Shown piece by piece: positions 18,935 to 64,000 of a stretch of 64,000 nucleotides of DNA (its first letter is position 1; each line of letters opens with the position of its first letter). The position numbers were made by a program, and so were the translations under genes. The notes under the pieces were generated by a model. The model was not told the DNA's origin. It saw only the letters and a list, made by a program, of their open reading frames with translations, and searched no databases. This stretch comes from a virus. Location of the stretch: IMG/VR virus record IMGVR_UViG_3300025120_010481, positions 1-64,000 of that record; one strand, written 5' to 3'.

Positions 18935-19694
18935 TAGTTTTATCCCTTACCTCTCTGTATTGAATTGAATTATTTATAAGAAAGTGATGCGTTCTAGACG
19001 GCCCTTGGTTGGGTCTTACTCCAAATTCTAGCCCTATCACTGAGTCATTCCAGCTTTTCCAGCTATCGACGATATCAGGTCTACTGTCGCCCAAGTCGAG
19101 AACCCTATTTTCTTCTGCTATAACTTTTGTAATCGAACCCAGCCCGTTTACTTTGTTGTGATCGTCAATTACCCATTTTTTCCTGAAGAACGCTCCAGAT
19201 TTTTCACCCTTTAAACCGTCTCTTGGCTGTAAAGGTGTTTTCCAGTGATAATCATACTCTGCCTCGCATGATTCATAGTAAGCTAAATTTGCTAGCTTTA
19301 ATCTTAAAACAAAGTCGTCGTCTTCCCAGCCACCACCATAAAATCTTTGATCCCAACAGCCAATGGTTCTAAGTAGTTGTTTGGAAAAGCCCATAAATCC
19401 AACACTGTACTGGGTCGCAGCAGCAAATCCATTATCTAGGTATTGTATTATTTTTTCTACTTCGTGCGGCTTTGGGTGCGTTCTATCATTGATTAATATT
19501 ACGTGCTCGGTTTCTGATGTTACCATAGAGTCATTTATTAGTTCAGAATACGTATCGTACCACTCGCGTCTATCAATTCTATTATTCCATTTTACGCTAA
19601 ACTTTTCTTCAAGTGGCTTTAAAGCCTCCATTTGATTTTCGACAATAGTTTTATCGCACCCACAATGCAAGCATATTGTAAATTCGTTAATCAT
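18927..19694 (-). CDS. GT2/GT7C-like glycosyltransferase
   Basis: IGCWDQRFYGGGWEDDDFVLRL; GAGG RBS before ATG 19694. Confidence 0.75.
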   Translation of the reverse strand: MINEFTICLHCGCDKTIVENQMEALKPLEEKFSVKWNNRIDRREWYDTYSELINDSMVTSETEHVILINDRTHPKPHEVEKIIQYLDNGFAAATQYSVGFMGFSKQLLRTIGCWDQRFYGGGWEDDDFVLRLKLANLAYYESCEAEYDYHWKTPLQPRDGLKGEKSGAFFRKKWVIDDHNKVNGLGSITKVIAEENRVLDLGDSRPDIVDSWKSWNDSVIGLEFGVRPNQGPSRTHHFLINNSIQYREVRDKTNE

Positions 19695-19728
19695 TTTATT
19701 TCCTCGTTGATAGAGTTTATTTCTGTTT
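19691..19728. repeat. Direct repeat copy B (gene end + RBS + ATG) flanking the methyltransferase gene
   Basis: tcattttatttcctcgttgatagagttt matches 20319-20346 at 25/28 nt, with further similarity beyond. Confidence 0.8.
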
Positions 19729-19738: not shown

Positions 19739-20322
19739 TTAATCCAAGCTCCCCAAAATACATGCTTTAACTCTGTGTGGTATTCGTATTTTTTTAGCTC
19801 TTGCTCTTTTATCAAATCTTCAATATGATCTATCGCTATCTCGTAATCGAACTTCCAGCCTAAGCGACTTGCGTGTTGGTCAAATTCTACACCCGTTTCC
19901 GCGTAATCGTGAGCCATAATTACATCACTGGGCTTTAAATGCTTGCTGAATGTTTGAAACTCTTTTATTTTATCTCCACCGTCACACAGTAATAGGCATC
20001 GTTTTCCTTTTTTTATTTGGTCTGCGATCTTTGCCTCCATGTCAAAGCAAGAACCTAAAAAGAAATCTATATTATTTGATTTAAACACATTGTTCACGTC
20101 TGGAATTACATCGGTGTCAGTTCTTTGGCTTGGGTTTATTAAGTCGTATGTTAATATTTTTGCGTTCGTTTTGTCTCTCATCCATATTGTTAAGCCCCCT
20201 ACGTAAGTGCCGATCTCTATGATTGTATCAAAATCTTTTAGAAATTTTTCAAATACTGGCCCAATTTCTTTTGGGTGACTTATGTGTACGCCCTTATACC
20301 AATTATGGTATTTTTTCGTCAT
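19735..20322 (-). CDS. Class I SAM-dependent methyltransferase (CmcI/Methyltransf_24-like)
   Basis: IIEIGTYVGG, LLCDGG, LKPSDVIMAHD. Confidence 0.8.
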   Translation of the reverse strand: MTKKYHNWYKGVHISHPKEIGPVFEKFLKDFDTIIEIGTYVGGLTIWMRDKTNAKILTYDLINPSQRTDTDVIPDVNNVFKSNNIDFFLGSCFDMEAKIADQIKKGKRCLLLCDGGDKIKEFQTFSKHLKPSDVIMAHDYAETGVEFDQHASRLGWKFDYEIAIDHIEDLIKEQELKKYEYHTELKHVFWGAWIK

Positions 20323-21220
20323 CTTGTTTCCTCTTTGATAGAGTTTCAATTATCTGTTTAGCTCTAGCTTCTGCGGTTCCATATTTCAATAGCCATTCTC
20401 TTTGATCCTTGATTCCCTCAAGATATAAGTCTGTTGGCTTATTATTTACTATAAGTTTATTGACGATATGCTCAAGTTCTTCTTTGGATGAATAAGAGCC
20501 ACAAGGCATATTTACCGGAGAGCAAGTCTTAGGCTTTTTATCGTAATCCCTAAAAAGCAAATACGCACCACCTGCCATTATTTCGTAGTGCCTCAAAGAA
20601 TCCCAACCACCCTTCATGCAGGTTAAACCAAAAAAAGAAGTCTGTATATCATTATAATAGTCATTTTCTTCAGAAAAAACATATAAATTTCTAGCTGCTG
20701 GCCCTAATATTTGAGGCCCAAATAAAGCGTATGGTGGTGCAGTTTGTGCGAATAGTTGGGTTTTTCGATTAACCGCTATCAGCCTTATCCTGTGACTAGG
20801 AATACCAAAACCTATAGGGTATACGTTGTCCTGCTCAGAAAAAAGCTCTCTTTTAAAACATGGAGTCCTAGATATATTTGAATGATCGTGTCCATCTAAA
20901 TACCACACTCCGTATTTTGCTAGTTTATCTATCTCTGGGTAATTCTTGACACCGTAAGCGTCTGTAACACCATATAACACAAAATCTATATCAGATAATT
21001 CTCTACTTGCAATATCTTTTATAGGTTCTGTAAGCAAGCTAAACCCCCAACCGTGAAGTTCGTTTTTGGGCGACTCTGAAAAGTCTCCGTACATAATTTT
21101 CTTCCTAGGGTAGTCTATGCAGTCGTCTCCCAGAACTTTTCTTAGCCCGACCAATGTAGACACCTCTTGGTAATCCCCTTGAGATTTAGGGTCTGAGGTT
21201 GTTATGTAGATAATTCTCAC
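20303..21220 (-). CDS. GT-B glycosyltransferase-like protein
   Basis: YLDGHD, FKREL, SFFGLT.MKGGWDSLRHYEIMAGG; GTG start with GGAGG RBS. Confidence 0.75.
   Translation of the reverse strand: MRIIYITTSDPKSQGDYQEVSTLVGLRKVLGDDCIDYPRKKIMYGDFSESPKNELHGWGFSLLTEPIKDIASRELSDIDFVLYGVTDAYGVKNYPEIDKLAKYGVWYLDGHDHSNISRTPCFKRELFSEQDNVYPIGFGIPSHRIRLIAVNRKTQLFAQTAPPYALFGPQILGPAARNLYVFSEENDYYNDIQTSFFGLTCMKGGWDSLRHYEIMAGGAYLLFRDYDKKPKTCSPVNMPCGSYSSKEELEHIVNKLIVNNKPTDLYLEGIKDQREWLLKYGTAEARAKQIIETLSKRKQDDEKIP
20319..20359. repeat. Direct repeat copy A flanking the methyltransferase gene
   Basis: tcatcttgtttcctctttgatagagttt; partner at 19691. Confidence 0.8.
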
Positions 21221-58853: not shown

Positions 58854-59779
58854 TAAAATACCTCATCTATTGTATAATCAATTTCTCTAGCTGGGAATCC
58901 TTCTACGTTTGAGAATACCCATCCACCACCCTGAGATAACATTCCGCGAGCATCTTTCTCGCGAACCCAGAAACTTCCTTCTGGCTGTCCGTGAACTTTT
59001 GGCCCAAAGTTAAATATGCCCCAACTATTTTGAATAAGGAATAAAGTTTCGTTGAGGCGTTCTCGCGTATCATCACAGGCTATCCATGCCATATCGTGAT
59101 TCCAGCCCTTGCTTCGAGCAGCAATTCCGTTTTTGTCTCGCTTAGAGCTAAAACCGTAACCAGAACAAACGCCCAAAGCGTAACCATTTGCTAGTGCATC
59201 TCTAGCCTCTTCAACAGTCCTAATATTAGAAACAGTCTTGACTTGATGTTTTTGAGCTTCGTCACCATAAATTTGGCGAGGTATCATTTTTCTAGCCCCT
59301 AGTTTTGAATTGTAAACAGAAAGGTCTACCATTCCATAATCCTTGCGAATCAAAATCCCCCCTTGCTCGCTGACATATCTAGCAGCACCAGAGCATGTCA
59401 TCCCTTGCTCGCTCCAAGGTCTGGACTGATAAATGGCTTCAGTGGCTCCACGAGCAACAAAATCTTCTCTTTGACCATCAATGTCTATCTCAACCGCCCG
59501 TGTAACATCTATAGCGTTGCGTGTAGCGTGAGCCACGCAGTCTCCCGTTGTTTGTGCCTCACTTGGCCCGAATGTAGGGTCAAACTTTAAAAGCGATTTA
59601 AATGGCAATGAGAGCTTGCCTTCACCAGCACCAAAAAGATCGTGAGCGGCAGCACCAAAAACAGGCATTGGCAATTCACCTAAAAGTTTAGCTGTGTCTT
59701 CGTGATCACAAACACTCCCAATGAAACCACCCCTGTAATGATTTAAAATCTTTCTAGGTGACTTAAAGTTTAAGTCCAT
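58853..59779 (-). CDS. Papain-like (C1) cysteine peptidase
   Basis: QTTGDCVAHA (Q/C), NHDM (H), IQNSWG (N), GSFWV. Confidence 0.85.
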   Translation of the reverse strand: MDLNFKSPRKILNHYRGGFIGSVCDHEDTAKLLGELPMPVFGAAAHDLFGAGEGKLSLPFKSLLKFDPTFGPSEAQTTGDCVAHATRNAIDVTRAVEIDIDGQREDFVARGATEAIYQSRPWSEQGMTCSGAARYVSEQGGILIRKDYGMVDLSVYNSKLGARKMIPRQIYGDEAQKHQVKTVSNIRTVEEARDALANGYALGVCSGYGFSSKRDKNGIAARSKGWNHDMAWIACDDTRERLNETLFLIQNSWGIFNFGPKVHGQPEGSFWVREKDARGMLSQGGGWVFSNVEGFPAREIDYTIDEVF

Positions 59780-60818
59780 TTAATAGCTCCTTTGCTGAAT
59801 TTTCCCATGTAAATTTATTTGCTGTTTCTATACCTTGTGTGTTTGAGTGTTGACTGGCGGGGCGTTCAAAGTGATTGAGTCTCATGTGTTCTATTAGTGC
59901 GTCCTTTTCTTCCTGCTCAAACGAAGCCCAATAACCTTTACTTCCATCAAAAAACACGCCATCATATGCCCTTTCTCTTTTATTCATATTTATCAAAAAC
60001 GAATTGGCGGGGCTGCAAAACTCGGTGTGAGCAGAGTAATTTGTCGCAATAACGGATTTCCCACAAGCCATCATCTCTAGCAATTCTAAATTCCAACCCT
60101 CTGCTCTTGCTGGGAACACGCCACAATCTACTCTACGCATAATATTATACACATCTTCGTGAGTTTCTTGTCTCGGAATAAACTTTATCTTTTCGCCTAA
60201 TCTGGAGTTTTTATAAAGGTTTTTCCACTGATCGTTCATTTTCCCAATAAACGGATTGTCGCACATCATCCATAGCTCTACGTTGTCTTTTGGCTCAAAA
60301 GCCGCGTTAAAACATCGAAGTAAAACATCGTGACCTTTTCGAGTTTCCCATTTTCCGCAATTGAAAAATACTGTTTTATCGTCATTTCTCGAAGGTGCTG
60401 GTTTGAAAATCTCAGTATCTACCCCCAAAGGTACTACATGAATATCTTCTGGGTTTTTAATATTGTTTTCAATCAAAACTTCTTTAGCCCATTTTGAGCA
60501 AACAAAAAGCCTATCGCAATGCAACATGCTCAACTTTTCTTCATCGCTAAATTCTGTTAGCTCGAAGATGGGAAAGCCAATATGCTCCCCTTTTCCTATG
60601 TGGGCGTGAACATCGTTCTGATGCCACATTTTTACAGATGGAAATAAACTTGTACTTCCTCGATTTCCCAACCCTTTTGCAATATCGTCATCAGTAAATT
60701 CTGGCGTAGAAATAGGGTACAAAGCAGCGGATGGATGAATCTTTATAATCTTTTTAAAAATATTGTATCCAGCTACTCCATACCCCAAGCTATTTATTGG
60801 AGCTTGAAAATTTATCAT
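59763..60818 (-). CDS. GT4 glycosyltransferase
   Basis: LGYGVAG, GKWETRKG, PARAEGWNLELLEMMACG. Confidence 0.9.
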   Translation of the reverse strand: MINFQAPINSLGYGVAGYNIFKKIIKIHPSAALYPISTPEFTDDDIAKGLGNRGSTSLFPSVKMWHQNDVHAHIGKGEHIGFPIFELTEFSDEEKLSMLHCDRLFVCSKWAKEVLIENNIKNPEDIHVVPLGVDTEIFKPAPSRNDDKTVFFNCGKWETRKGHDVLLRCFNAAFEPKDNVELWMMCDNPFIGKMNDQWKNLYKNSRLGEKIKFIPRQETHEDVYNIMRRVDCGVFPARAEGWNLELLEMMACGKSVIATNYSAHTEFCSPANSFLINMNKRERAYDGVFFDGSKGYWASFEQEEKDALIEHMRLNHFERPASQHSNTQGIETANKFTWENSAKELLNGLKL

Positions 60819-60845
60819 TGCGTGCCCTTTGTTTGTTTTGTTATA

Positions 60846-60885
60846 AGCTAATAGTATTATAACTCAAAGGGTCGCTTAAAGCACA
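60846..60885 (-). promoter_or_regulatory. Promoter TGTGCT-N10-CTTTGA-N2-TATAATAC (copy 2)
   Basis: Matches 46414-46452; upstream of the GT4-peptidase-membrane-sigma operon. Confidence 0.7.
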
Positions 60886-60889
60886 TCAA

Positions 60890-61585
60890 TTATACTTCTT
60901 TTGTAATTTTCTTTCGCTCGTAGTTGTCTATGTAGAATCTAACCCTGTCTATGTTAGTTCCATGAATTGGCCCAACTATATACCTGTCGTTAAATCTTTC
61001 CAAAGCCGTACCAAAGCATATAACGCCTATTATTTTACCCTTGTAAAGAATTGGCCCGCCTGAGTCACCCTGTATAGCCCAAGAAAAAATAACGTGACCG
61101 TCTTGGGGGATTGAAGAGCCTGCGTATTTAGCGTTCCAGTGACGCAAGGAACCCGTTGCATATCCACACATTTCCACTTGCTCGCCACATTTTACTTTCT
61201 CGTCAGATATATTGCAAGTTTCCACTACTGGTATTTCGTCAGGTATAAGAGCCTCGATTAACGCGACATCATTATAGTTTTCAAACATGTACATAGAATT
61301 GTAAGCAACTATGCCTCCCTCAGATTTTTTTCCACCTGAGAAAAAGACATTAAACAAAGTACTTTTACCTTTAACGCAATGGCTGGCAGTAAGAATTAAA
61401 CCAATGTAATTTTCCCCAGCATCCTCAATAAATTTTACAACTGTACCAGAGCCTTGGAGTCCGTCACCTTGAAGTAAAACAACTCCCTTTTGATAATCTT
61501 TTTCTGGTGATATATCCCAACTTTGAGCTTGGCAAAACTGAGGAAATAAAACAAAACCTAAAAACAGAAAAAATAGCCTAAACAT
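60890..61585 (-). CDS. Secreted trypsin-like serine protease
   Basis: Signal peptide; LTASHC, DVALI, GDSGGP catalytic triad. Confidence 0.92.
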   Translation of the reverse strand: MFRLFFLFLGFVLFPQFCQAQSWDISPEKDYQKGVVLLQGDGLQGSGTVVKFIEDAGENYIGLILTASHCVKGKSTLFNVFFSGGKKSEGGIVAYNSMYMFENYNDVALIEALIPDEIPVVETCNISDEKVKCGEQVEMCGYATGSLRHWNAKYAGSSIPQDGHVIFSWAIQGDSGGPILYKGKIIGVICFGTALERFNDRYIVGPIHGTNIDRVRFYIDNYERKKITKEV

Positions 61586-61674
61586 AATATAACCTTTCTT
61601 TGTAAAACACACCAAAAGATTATACACACTTATTTTAAATATTTAGTTTTATATTTAAATTGACACCCTTTTCA

Positions 61675-62889
61675 TTATACAAACAACTCTTTTATAATTT
61701 TTCCTGAGTTTGCTATCTTCATAGGTCGCCCACCGTTGCTTGTATAAGTGGTCTCCAACGAAATGCCAAGAGCATTACAAATCGACACCATTACATCTTC
61801 CGAAGAGTGGCTTTCTGTTTCTACTTTTGTTCCGTCTTCGTTTGTTGAACCTACAGATATACCACCATTCATACCAGCCCCACCCACAACCACACTCCAG
61901 CTTCTTGCCCAGTGGTCTCGTCCGGCGTTCTGGTTGATTTGTGGTGTTCTACTAAACTCTCCCATCCATATGATAGCCGTGTCGTCAAGCAGTCCTCGCT
62001 GCTCTAGGTCTTCTATTAACGCACTCATGCCTTGGTCTAGCATGGGTAACTTTGTGTCTTTTAATGTTGGAAAAATATTCTGATGGTTGTCCCAGCCGTT
62101 TAGCCCGACCTCGATAAATGGAACGCCAACCTCAACAAGCCTTCTAGCCATTAGACATCCCTTGCCAAAGCTGTTGTCCCCGTATCGTTCCTTAACGGAA
62201 TCTGGCTCTACGTCCACCTTCATTGCGTCCATCTCACTACTGGTCAAAACATCAAATGTTTTTCGCAGTATCTTTTGATGTTCTTTAGCGAGAGACCCTC
62301 TATTGTTTTTTATGAAGTTGTTTTCCATTAAATGTAGGGCTTGTGCCCTTTGACGGAATCTATCATCTATTTTTAAGTCTAGATTTCTAATTCTACCATC
62401 GCTGTTTACCACGAACGGAGAATATTCAGCACCTAAAAATCCACCTCCAGCACTTGGCCCATTAACTGACACAAACTGAGGTATCAAAAGGTCTTCTCTC
62501 TCTAGCTCTTTAGAAAGAATAGCTCCGTAACTTGGGTGAACCATATTTGGATTAGGCACATAGCCTGTGTGCATGTAGTAACGACCCCGCATGTGGTCAG
62601 CTTCACGGGTACTCATGCTTCGCACAATAGCCATGTTGTGCATCTGCTTTGCCATTAGCGGCATATGCTCACAAATTTCTACATCTCCGGTTGTACTTAT
62701 GGGCTTGAATGGGCCACCAGTTGGTGCGTCTGGTTTTAAGTCCCATATGTCCATCGTTGACGGGCCACCTCCCATCCAGAGAAGTATGGCCGATTTGCCC
62801 TTTTTCTTTAATTCCTTCTCGTTAGCCTTGAGGGTTTGCGTTAAAGCGGCAAGCCCAGCTAGTGATGATAAAAACTGTCTTCTTTTCAT
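61675..62889 (-). CDS. DUF1501 family protein with Tat signal
   Basis: RRQFL; ILLWMGGGPS..D.WDLKP; GCLMARRLVE.GV; GWDNH; GEFSRTP; GRDHW. Confidence 0.92.
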   Translation of the reverse strand: MKRRQFLSSLAGLAALTQTLKANEKELKKKGKSAILLWMGGGPSTMDIWDLKPDAPTGGPFKPISTTGDVEICEHMPLMAKQMHNMAIVRSMSTREADHMRGRYYMHTGYVPNPNMVHPSYGAILSKELEREDLLIPQFVSVNGPSAGGGFLGAEYSPFVVNSDGRIRNLDLKIDDRFRQRAQALHLMENNFIKNNRGSLAKEHQKILRKTFDVLTSSEMDAMKVDVEPDSVKERYGDNSFGKGCLMARRLVEVGVPFIEVGLNGWDNHQNIFPTLKDTKLPMLDQGMSALIEDLEQRGLLDDTAIIWMGEFSRTPQINQNAGRDHWARSWSVVVGGAGMNGGISVGSTNEDGTKVETESHSSEDVMVSICNALGISLETTYTSNGGRPMKIANSGKIIKELFV

Positions 62890-62907
62890 TTTTCTTGTAT
62901 CCTTATC
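62832..62907. repeat. Direct repeat copy 1 (RBS + Tat-leader codons)
   Basis: 70/76 nt identical to 63581-63656. Confidence 0.92.
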
Positions 62908-62942
62908 CTGAATATTTTTGCTGTTGTTTTACTTTTACCGTG

Positions 62943-63638
62943 TTACTTGCGATTGTCAGGGTAGCGAAGAAACATGACTAAATCGTCACCGCACTCTGAA
63001 AGAGTAAGTTCACTGACTTCATTCTTTCCCGGTTTCATGTTCGCGATGTCATCGGGAGTTTCAATCTCCCCATTTGGCCCCGCTGAAACCACGCGAATGA
63101 ATTTGGATTCTGTTTGATTGATGATTCCGTCTTGGTCAAAATCGACCTGTAACTCAAGTTCATTTCCCCAACCATCCACGATTGTTGGTTCACCAGTTTC
63201 GTTTCGCCCCGTCGCACGCACATAGGGGCCATGCCAGCCAATTTTGTTGACCGGATCGTAGTTTTTAAGTTCGGGGGCGGCTTCTTCCATGTGGGCTGGT
63301 GCATCCTCTTTGAGGAGATCGTTGATTTCTCTTGGAAGAGCATTTGTCTTGTGTGACAGTGACTCAATAACACCGTCTTCCCCCGCCATCGCTTCACGAA
63401 CGGTATTCAGCGTAGCCTGCGTAGCAATTTCGACAGGGCTGTTGGACTCACCAGAAGGCGAGGTGATATCAATATTGTTAAACGTGGTGAATATGAGGGC
63501 GGTCGCGATTAAAATCACCAATACGACTAATAGTTCGAGGAGCGTCAAACCACGTTGATTTAAGTGATGACGCGATCCACGGGTTTGAGTTAAAGCAGCA
63601 AGTCCAGATAGCGATGATAAAAACTGTCTTCTTTTCAT
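62943..63638 (-). CDS. Chimeric prepilin/pseudopilin (type II secretion G-like) protein with a borrowed Tat leader
   Basis: RG|LTLLELLVVLVIL class III signal, GWHGPY, DGWGNE, VSAGPNG, DDLV; visibly GC-richer than its flanks. Confidence 0.8.
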   Translation of the reverse strand: MKRRQFLSSLSGLAALTQTRGSRHHLNQRGLTLLELLVVLVILIATALIFTTFNNIDITSPSGESNSPVEIATQATLNTVREAMAGEDGVIESLSHKTNALPREINDLLKEDAPAHMEEAAPELKNYDPVNKIGWHGPYVRATGRNETGEPTIVDGWGNELELQVDFDQDGIINQTESKFIRVVSAGPNGEIETPDDIANMKPGKNEVSELTLSECGDDLVMFLRYPDNRK

Positions 63639-63656
63639 TTTTCGTGTATCCTTATC
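63581..63656. repeat. Direct repeat copy 2 (RBS + Tat-leader codons)
   Basis: 70/76 nt identical to 62832-62907. Confidence 0.92.
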
Positions 63657-63692
63657 TTTATATTCCTGCTTATTTTTTATTTTGTAAATCCG

Positions 63693-63721
63693 TTAGCGTG
63701 TCAAACTGACACAATTACCAA
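63693..63721 (-). promoter_or_regulatory. Candidate bacterial-type SECIS hairpin
   Basis: After the UGA: lower stem UUGGU/GCUAA, upper stem GUGUC/GACAC, loop AGUUU with G at +21. Confidence 0.5.
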
Positions 63722-64000
63722 GCTCGTCACGACCAATATCTGGCTTTCCATTTAGGCCCCGGAGTTTCGCATTTATGCCTAGCTCTAAATGACTTTCTCC
63801 TAGCTGGATCAGACTTCTTGATTCTCATATTTGGATCGCCAAAGTTAACCTTTACTACGTTACCCTTTTCGTTTTTAACATAAACAGATCGTTTTTTCGG
63901 GCCATCTGGTGTTAGAAACGGTTTCCCTAGTTTAACTTTTCTACCTTGATATTCTGCTGCTCTTACGGGAACCAAGTTCCTGCCATCCTTTGTGTAAATA
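63715..64000 (-). CDS. Basic large-phage protein (RRKSFRARH..C..ARYWS motif), 5'-partial; possible Sec readthrough of UGA at 63727-63729
   Basis: Frame is open to the window end; TGG TCG TGA CGA GCT TGG TAA. Without readthrough the CDS ends at 63727. Confidence 0.7.

Follow-up and report, generated by a model that had tools for sequence, protein, structure and literature searches.

A prepilin gene in the virus record IMGVR_UViG_3300025120_010481 appears to be a host gene that a phage has captured, placed behind a copy of one of its own translation starts and passed on to a second phage lineage. The gene lies beside a gene of the DUF1501 family in the stretch of 64,000 nucleotides (nt) analysed here, termed the window, which forms the first 64 kb of the 79,203-bp record, itself about 51% complete according to CheckV. 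The DUF1501 gene, the prepilin gene and the other genes relevant here are all encoded on the minus strand. In the interpretation considered probable, the captured host pilin is carried as a repeat-flanked cassette that has a phage-derived start, yields a functional prepilin processed by the host and is mobile between phage lineages.

The cassette is bounded by a direct repeat whose copies, at 62832–62907 and 63581–63656, are 749 nt apart and identical at 70 of 76 positions; within 2.5 kb, only one other family of direct repeats occurs, a 17-mer. Read on the minus strand, each copy holds a sequence resembling a ribosome-binding site (RBS), GATAAGGATAC..AAAAATG, together with 19 codons. Copy 1 (63581–63656) supplies the RBS region, the start codon (63638–63636) and codons 1–19 of the pilin, and copy 2 (62832–62907) supplies the RBS region, the start codon (62889–62887) and codons 1–19 of DUF1501. 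One of the six differences between the copies falls in the RBS region, four are synonymous (TCA/TCG, GGG/GGA, GCC/GCT and ACG/ACT) and one is the substitution A11S. A repeat search therefore reproduced two claims of the initial annotation, namely a 76-bp repeat (70/76) covering the RBS and the first 19 codons of both genes, and four synonymous changes among five coding differences, the fifth being A11S. The weaker similarity that it placed about 30 bp further upstream proved to be out of register, and 9–75 of 500 shuffles match it, depending on the comparison window.

Both open reading frames (ORFs) headed by the repeat are real. The DUF1501 gene (61675–62889, minus strand) encodes 404 amino acids (aa) and matches PF07394 at 1e-102. 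The prepilin gene (62943–63638, minus strand) encodes 231 aa and passes the cut-offs of PF07963 (24.0 bits, cut-off 21.2) and TIGR02532 (20.1 bits, cut-off 16.3). The pilin had also been described as markedly richer in G+C than DUF1501. It is indeed richer, with 47.1% in its coding sequence (48.0% in the host-derived part; 0.50 at in-frame third codon positions) against 44.5% in DUF1501 and a contig mean of 39.1%, but "markedly" overstates a host-like value that is just about 3 points above DUF1501, the reported 57% and 35% having come from unrepresentative 60-mers. A consensus scan of 62700–64000 found neither a sigma-70-type promoter nor an intrinsic terminator, a scan that says little for a planctomycete phage.

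The leader of the prepilin is a chimera of 30 codons (63549–63638, minus strand). Codons 1–19 (63582–63638) come from the phage DUF1501 gene and encode an RRxFL motif and the hydrophobic h-region of a twin-arginine translocation (Tat) signal, and codons 20–30 (63549–63581) are the retained end of a host leader, closing in ..QRG. The window pilin becomes collinear with the closest host allele, L009, 11 codons ahead of the cleavage site (host ..GRSSRHHLIQRG, phage ..TQT-RGSRHHLNQRG), and 5' of this point its sequence is that of the DUF1501 start. Comparison of the fused copies with L009 and with the DUF1501 copy places the left (5') illegitimate junction at 63579–63584 (minus strand), where ..CAAAC(C/T)|CGTG.. 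offers 1–3 nt of microhomology; the junction falls at the same base in four of four fused DNA copies (the window, L001, L016 and L021). The right (3') junction, compared through the 3' flanks, lies with the stop codon at 62937–62945 (minus strand), and TAACAC is the only sequence past the ORF that host and phage have in common. The Mariniblastus orthologue of DUF1501 is 69% identical to the phage protein and has a longer, different Tat signal, and none of about 20 cellular pilin loci examined carries the fused leader. Since the host DUF1501 signal differs and host pilins have no Tat-like leader, the front of the leader came from the phage gene, as initially proposed, and no cellular homologue that already carried it came to light. 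Independent captures by each phage lineage were considered and rejected, because a junction identical to the base in all fused copies makes them unlikely and points to a single original fusion.

The donor was traced through a search of 5.8 billion proteins, which returned 157 homologues of the pilin. Six of these (P0001–P0005 and P0009) are 95–97% identical to the window pilin and share its MKRRQFLSSL.. leader. The other homologues whose N-terminus could be read have unrelated hydrophilic leaders of 16–40 aa, followed by G|LTLLE and a mature part of 202 aa; they include P0006–P0008 (90–94% identity) and named proteins of Mariniblastus and Pirellulaceae. The cellular homologues belong to Planctomycetota (Mariniblastus, Pirellulaceae), where the donor gene stands directly between two other prepilin genes, the three encoding mature proteins of 245, 202 and 277 aa in that order. 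They head a locus of PilM/N/O-like, PilT, PilB and PilC genes and are followed by genes for two non-pilin membrane or assembly proteins. Next are a PilT/PilU-family ATPase, which scores 376 bits against TIGR01420 (cut-off 319), a PilB/GspE-like ATPase containing an MshEN domain, and a platform protein of the PilC/GspF type. Judged by its gene content, this is a locus of the type IV pilus (T4P) type with a predicted retraction ATPase. No DUF1501 gene was found within 8 kb of it.

At the DNA level, the window pilin is 93.2% identical to L009 and the phage copy in contig L001 is 97.9% identical to it, while the mature window protein is 96–98% identical to L009 and 90–95% identical to named Mariniblastus alleles. 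The view that the pilin is a captured host gene is thereby upheld, its cellular homologues standing in a conserved planctomycete pilus operon at up to 93–98% DNA identity, and the homologue search for a planctomycete source identified the donor as a Mariniblastus/Pirellulaceae T4P locus. The converse, that the host obtained the gene from the phage, is rejected for the family as a whole, given that the gene is found in a conserved Pirellulaceae operon down to 69% nt identity.

Related phages have both empty and filled versions of the insertion site. In three very close relatives (L002, L003 and L004), whose neighbouring proteins are 91–98% identical to those of the window, a 418-aa gene, a 131-nt spacer and DUF1501 succeed one another, and the site has one leader and lacks the pilin. 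The 418-aa gene is the conserved left neighbour of the insertion site; its 3' end occupies 63727–64000 (minus strand) and it extends past the window to 64983. Its product is 97% identical at the aa level to that of L003 and L004, where DUF1501 follows directly. Comparison with the same three contigs shows that the intergenic region 5' of the pilin (63639–63726, minus strand) is the native DUF1501 upstream region, namely the 131-nt empty-site spacer in which about 44 nt have been exchanged for 5 nt. A second lineage, termed B, has a different synteny, and its replication proteins are merely 30–70% identical to those of the window lineage, termed A. In lineage B, too, the site is empty in some members (L005 and L006, one leader and no pilin) and filled in others (L001/L017, L018, L016 and L021). 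The single-leader empty sites for which a search had been suggested were therefore found, in three close-relative contigs and two contigs of lineage B.

The fused leader stands behind three different upstream contexts. The sequence 5' of it in L016 is the native upstream sequence of the lineage-B DUF1501 gene, and in L001 and L021 it is preceded by an additional ORF of 113 aa. Downstream, the 53-nt spacer between the pilin stop codon and the DUF1501 start (62890–62942, minus strand) moves with the cassette into lineage B, accompanied by an RBS of lineage-A type; it is shorter in L016. The DUF1501 genes of L001 and L016 are 98–100% identical to that of the window over the first 90 nt, 77–83% over the next 180 nt and 87.5–88.6% over the whole gene. 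The simplest reading of these sequences is that one fusion arose in a lineage-A-like phage and that the unit of leader, pilin, spacer, RBS and leader then moved into lineage B. The upstream copy in the window has the native lineage-A RBS region, which suggests that the fusion probably arose in a phage of this kind. The transfer may have occurred by homologous recombination, with crossovers in or beside the two leader copies, which would double as homology arms; the same repeats would also permit precise loss of the cassette. Besides the window record, just one contig of the IMG/VR viral collection was found to contain the fused junction. Prevalence was counted leaving aside runs with about half of the sampled words, which may represent empty-site relatives or hosts. 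A further DUF1501 paralogue, divergent (about 28% identity) and equipped with a twin-arginine leader of its own, occurs in lineage-B phages (L005:4164–5372 and L006:3513–4775) a few genes upstream of the conserved DUF1501.

The proposed course of events begins with an ancestral phage that would have taken one gene of a host T4P locus by illegitimate recombination at 1–3 nt of microhomology, the ends of the host fragment lying 11 codons ahead of the prepilin cleavage site and a few bases past the stop codon. Insertion into the 5' end of DUF1501 would have duplicated its RBS, start codon and first 19 codons while leaving DUF1501 intact, and the promoterless, startless host fragment would thereby have gained a phage translation start. 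The resulting prepilin would have a 30-aa chimeric leader, made of the phage Tat n- and h-regions and the last 11 host residues, and an unchanged Gly at position −1, hydrophobic helix and Glu at +5. Its very hydrophobic alpha1-N helix would insert the protein with the N-terminus inside, and a host A24 prepilin peptidase would cut it. A mature subunit near-identical to that of the host would then be supplied from the phage genome during infection, shifting the dosage of one pilus subunit. By analogy with known systems, its role may be to perturb pili and exclude pilus-dependent competitors, or to maintain the filament. FimU over-expressed alone has been reported to disrupt pilus assembly (PMC12952977), and in Vibrio the ratio of minor to major pilins controls pilus dynamics (PMC13249403); these precedents suggest that a single phage-supplied subunit could perturb or sustain host pili.

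The predicted protein has the features of a prepilin. Its leader ends in Gly (..QRG|LTLLE..), after which comes a hydrophobic stretch of about 21 residues that has Glu as its fifth. The mature region (62946–63548, minus strand) has 201 codons, begins with L-T-L-L-E and is predicted to form a GspG/PulG-like head domain. The alpha1-N segment (63486–63548, minus strand) comprises 21 residues with Glu at +5 and a mean Kyte–Doolittle hydropathy (KD) of 2.73. An EF-hand-like loop, DxDxDGxIxxxE (residues 166–177; 63108–63143, minus strand), is a candidate calcium site like that of GspG-type pseudopilins. An AlphaFold2 model reached a mean predicted local distance difference test score of 85, with values below 50 in the leader. 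In an exhaustive VIA search, the nearest solved chains are EpsG (Z 7.3) and PulG (Z 7.0), and almost all top matches, among them PilA1 (Z 5.6), are pilins or pseudopilins; as these Z scores are below 8, they give moderate support for a pilin fold. A Foldseek search of the PDB returned only weak GspG/PulG matches (best E 0.05), and a profile search of PDB sequences matched the N-terminal helix alone. The GspG model TIGR01710 gave no match and the GspH model TIGR01708 gave 17.7 bits at the N-terminus against a cut-off of 80, so that the likeness to GspG and GspH is one of fold only.

The initial annotation held that the product bears two incompatible export signals in tandem. Such incompatibility was not established: the N-terminus stays cytoplasmic with a Tat signal as well as with a prepilin leader, and in this naturally long leader it is the most variable portion that the borrowed part replaces. 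Prepilins insert through the signal recognition particle (SRP)/Sec route while the leader stays cytoplasmic, typical leaders measure 6–26 aa, cleavage depends critically on the Gly alone, and certain leaders can be shortened without harm to processing (PMC4471445). The fused leader has 30 aa and a net charge of +4 to +6, compared with 20–40 aa and +3 to +6 in native leaders, and no in-frame alternative start lies between its ATG and Gly-1. Of the parts of a Tat signal, the leader has RRQFL and an h-region of 13 residues, which includes a D in several alleles; it lacks the c-region (LKA), and a transmembrane helix comes next. An NCBIfam scan of the pilin found no Tat-signal family at E ≤ 0.01. 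On these features, the pilin leader would not qualify as a Tat signal peptide. Two to three A24 peptidases are encoded in each of the five Mariniblastus/Pirellulaceae genomes searched, and none was found on the phage contig, which covers about half a genome. The borrowed part would mainly be a tolerated expression adaptor, with a normal mature subunit made and cut by the host peptidase.

A different possibility is that the chimeric leader is itself the innovation, its twin arginines and h-region diverting the prepilin to the Tat pathway or blocking the peptidase or the platform, so that a dominant-negative product would turn pili off and exclude superinfecting phages. This comes near the suggestion of the initial annotation that the mature (pseudo)pilin might jam pili or the type II secretion system. 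The RRxFL motif is kept in all fused alleles, the leader contains a hydrophobic patch absent from native leaders, and phages are known to target T4P assembly for exclusion (PMC12952977). The proposal is nevertheless unlikely, as the h-region is not conserved like that of a working Tat signal: pilin leader alleles have A, S or D at position 11, and T19I and R20C occur. By comparison, A11 and T19 are kept in all DUF1501 copies, one lineage-B allele of which has two conservative h-region changes. Neither the Tat c-region nor its cleavage motif was copied, and the alpha1-N helix is far more hydrophobic than the borrowed region, which favours SRP/Sec (PMC4471445). On the mature part, purifying selection is strong and like that in hosts, which a mere plug would not need. 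Just as doubtful is a broader version of the idea, in which the leader alters the fate of the pilin, causing dominant-negative pilus shutdown, and its duplication provides the homology arm by which the weapon passes from one phage to another, unrelated one.

Selection on the gene also bears on whether the phage uses it at all. Every phage copy of the pilin is intact, with Gly-1 and Glu+5 kept. The ratio of nonsynonymous to synonymous divergence (dN/dS) is 0.05–0.07 among phage copies, compared with 0.01–0.03 in comparably diverged host pairs. Since the cleavage-site residues are intact and purifying selection is strong, the product is probably a functional prepilin. It could still be imagined that the ORF is a neutral hitch-hiker, captured DNA decaying in the phage genome without function, as the close relatives manage without it and the fused junction is so rare among IMG/VR viral contigs. 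This is very unlikely, because the low dN/dS holds over a synonymous divergence (dS) of 0.28–0.53 and the cassette has been retained in two lineages and many samples.

Not one alignment column distinguishes the phage alleles from the host alleles, and the phage copies have no fixed residue of their own. Recurrent phage changes at host-invariant positions are H to R or N, T to I or M in the DxDxDG loop, and P to T, the last of which adjoins a one-codon deletion of the window allele. At position 7 of the EF-hand-type loop (63108–63143), phage alleles often have I or M, and all host alleles have T. The deletion lies just past the hydrophobic helix (63486–63500) and distinguishes the window pilin from most other phage alleles and from all host alleles read; in contigs of other runs it appears as a 3-nt insertion at 63491 or 63495 relative to the window pilin.

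The fusion had been called recent, a claim that is not sustained by four synonymous differences in 19 codons and by the presence of the fusion in two phage lineages and in numerous samples. Two to three synonymous states (TCG, GGA and mostly GCT) are common to the copy-1 leaders of the window, L001 and L016 and occur in no copy-2 leader, which indicates that the repeat copies had already diverged when the cassette spread. In the mature pilin, dS is 0.28 between the window and L001, 0.36 between the window and L016 and 0.53 between L001 and L016, and just 0.056 between L001 and the host allele L009. These values bear on the proposal that the window phage captured the gene once, very recently and in place, by tandem duplication, without any mobility of the cassette or exchange with hosts. 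The native lineage-A RBS region of the upstream copy in the window and the lack of the insert in close relatives would fit such an event. Yet it is highly improbable, being contradicted by the same junction in lineage B (L001, L016 and L021) and in several metagenomes, as well as by the shared synonymous states of the copy-1 leaders and the divergence among phage pilins.

The junctions are also supported by unitigs. In the probable source run, the sole point at which Logan unitigs break is the core of 29 identical nt in the repeat, and depth is even across flank, cassette and flank (30.4, 29.8 and 27.3). Unitigs of three separate studies span both host/phage junctions. One unitig of 778 nt, with this 29-mer at its ends, would fit a circle without demonstrating one. 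A chimera joining host and phage reads at the short repeat, the artefact against which a check of the junctions had been advised, would account for the break at the repeat core, but it is excluded for practical purposes by these bridging unitigs, the equal depth and the recurrence of the same junction in independent assemblies (L001, L016, L018 and L021; proteins P0001–P0005 and P0009).

Phage and chromosomal alleles of the pilin appear not to form separate groups. In an analysis of 20 allele rows, a maximum-likelihood tree places the three phage copies and the cellular alleles L009 and L015 in one clade (support 99/97), within which L001 and L009 pair (support 99/98). Forcing the phage copies to be monophyletic costs 28 log-likelihood units (approximately unbiased test, p = 0.026), and mosaic difference tracks agree with patchy recombination. 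Together with the single shared junction, this non-monophyly points to continuing patchy recombination of the phage-borne gene with chromosomal alleles. It suggests that the phage-borne pilin keeps exchanging sequence with host alleles, and the recent exchange between L001 and L009 in particular may have run either way.

Several observations weigh against the interpretation of a mobile, host-derived and functional prepilin cassette in a planctomycete phage. The borrowed leader has a semi-hydrophobic patch, with a maximum 11-residue KD of +1.5 to +1.7 compared with at most +0.6 in native leaders, and normal processing is in view of this patch an assumption. In the RNA run X15, contigs cover the pilin body and both neighbouring genes and none crosses the leader junction; DNA carry-over is possible in this run, and it was not counted as evidence of expression. 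Expression of the phage prepilin, its cleavage and its incorporation into pili are predictions made from the sequence. The test of phage-copy monophyly used 606 columns and a group named after the first tree had been seen, which makes the non-monophyly moderate evidence. No structural genes were recognised on the 79-kb contig in a PHROG scan of 20 proteins, which matched replication and nucleotide-metabolism genes only, and on half a genome of this content, it is the replication genes and the classification in IMG/VR that support the designation as a phage. Assignment of the host, finally, is based on the sequence similarity of two captured genes only. With these points taken into account, the repeat-flanked cassette of a captured and functional host pilin is still the probable explanation.

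The contig encodes ribonucleotide reductase, DnaB, a split DNA polymerase, a UvsX-like recombinase, an exonuclease and thymidylate synthase. Searches with tblastn of the pilin and of DUF1501 against 50,697 deposited phage records gave zero matches for either. DUF1501 (61675–62889), which has its own Tat-type signal and is 69% identical to its Mariniblastus orthologue, would be an older host-derived gene. The likely host is Mariniblastus or a related member of the Pirellulaceae, and the two captured genes together provide a host prediction for a phage group without counterpart among the deposited records searched. The sister contig L006 measures 79,574 bp, nearly the same as the 79,203-bp record.

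Genes around the cassette show further features. Downstream of DUF1501 lie a trypsin-like peptidase with a signal peptide (60890–61627) and a GT4 glycosyltransferase (59763–60818). This end of the window (59763–62889) is a run of envelope or secreted-protein genes, and the last 2 kb of the window are its GC-richest part (44%). The 418-aa gene upstream ends in ..KARYWS-TGA, followed in frame by R-A-W-TAA (63715–63729, minus strand; also in L002–L004). Lineage-B homologues read ..KARYWS-C-R-(N/A)-W-stop (L001:5540–5560 and L006:5975–5995). The TGA aligns with a Cys codon in these relatives, which bears on the idea of selenocysteine insertion or read-through.

If this account is correct, it would extend phage-carried pilus subunits to an uncultivated marine planctomycete–phage system, and a copy so close to that of the host would point to the dosage or timing of one subunit in place of a decoy surface. 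It would also show with unusual clarity how a gene from inside an operon, without a promoter of its own, is domesticated by a phage, each stage being visible in public data: the host donor allele, the junctions with their microhomology, empty and filled sites, and the transfer to a second lineage. A translated repeat that acts both as expression adaptor and as recombination arm would be a simple general route for moving auxiliary genes between phages. A second, smaller example of this mechanism may exist in the same genome, where a gene lies between 37-nt direct repeats (81% identical) at 19682–19718 and 20310–20346. On the minus strand these repeats contain GAGGAAA, which resembles an RBS, and a start codon, giving a smaller case of a gene between duplicated translation-initiation regions.

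Among the closest known systems are the prophage-encoded FimU (P-FimU) and the PilA-like proteins of Pseudomonas and Xylella phages, for which exclusion of pilus-dependent phages has been proposed or shown (Sztanko et al., Cell Rep 2026, PMC12952977); some phages with pilus-subunit homologues are virulent (PMC12952977). Here too, the phage encodes a homologue of a structural subunit of host T4P. However, P-FimU is highly diverged from host FimU, has extra loops and acts as a non-bindable mimic, whereas the present pilin is near-identical to host alleles, which makes a variant-decoy mechanism unlikely and an effect through dosage more plausible. That system has nothing that corresponds to the chimeric leader or to the repeat-flanked cassette, and the host considered here would be a planctomycete. 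The arrangement also resembles the PeSL mobile regulatory cassettes of T4-type phages, promoter-plus-terminator motifs located between genes (Arbiol et al. 2010, PMC2839356; PMC4122927). In both cases, short repeated expression signals flank accessory genes that are present in some close relatives and absent from others and that are exchanged between phages; the PeSL repeats account for the insertions, deletions and replacements by which close relatives differ. In contrast to PeSL, the repeat described here consists of an RBS, a start codon and 19 signal-peptide codons, and it is translated into the captured protein. As a protein, the pilin resembles GspG, PulG, EpsG and type IV prepilins in its Gly-ended leader, its 21-residue helix with Glu5, its match to the hidden Markov model of the N-methylation motif, its EpsG/PulG-like head and its DxDxDG-type loop. 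It differs from GspG in a mature part about 70 aa longer, in not reaching the GspG and GspH equivalog cut-offs and in a leader that is partly a Tat remnant, and the host pilin locus differs from type II secretion systems in containing PilT, which is typical of type IVa pili.

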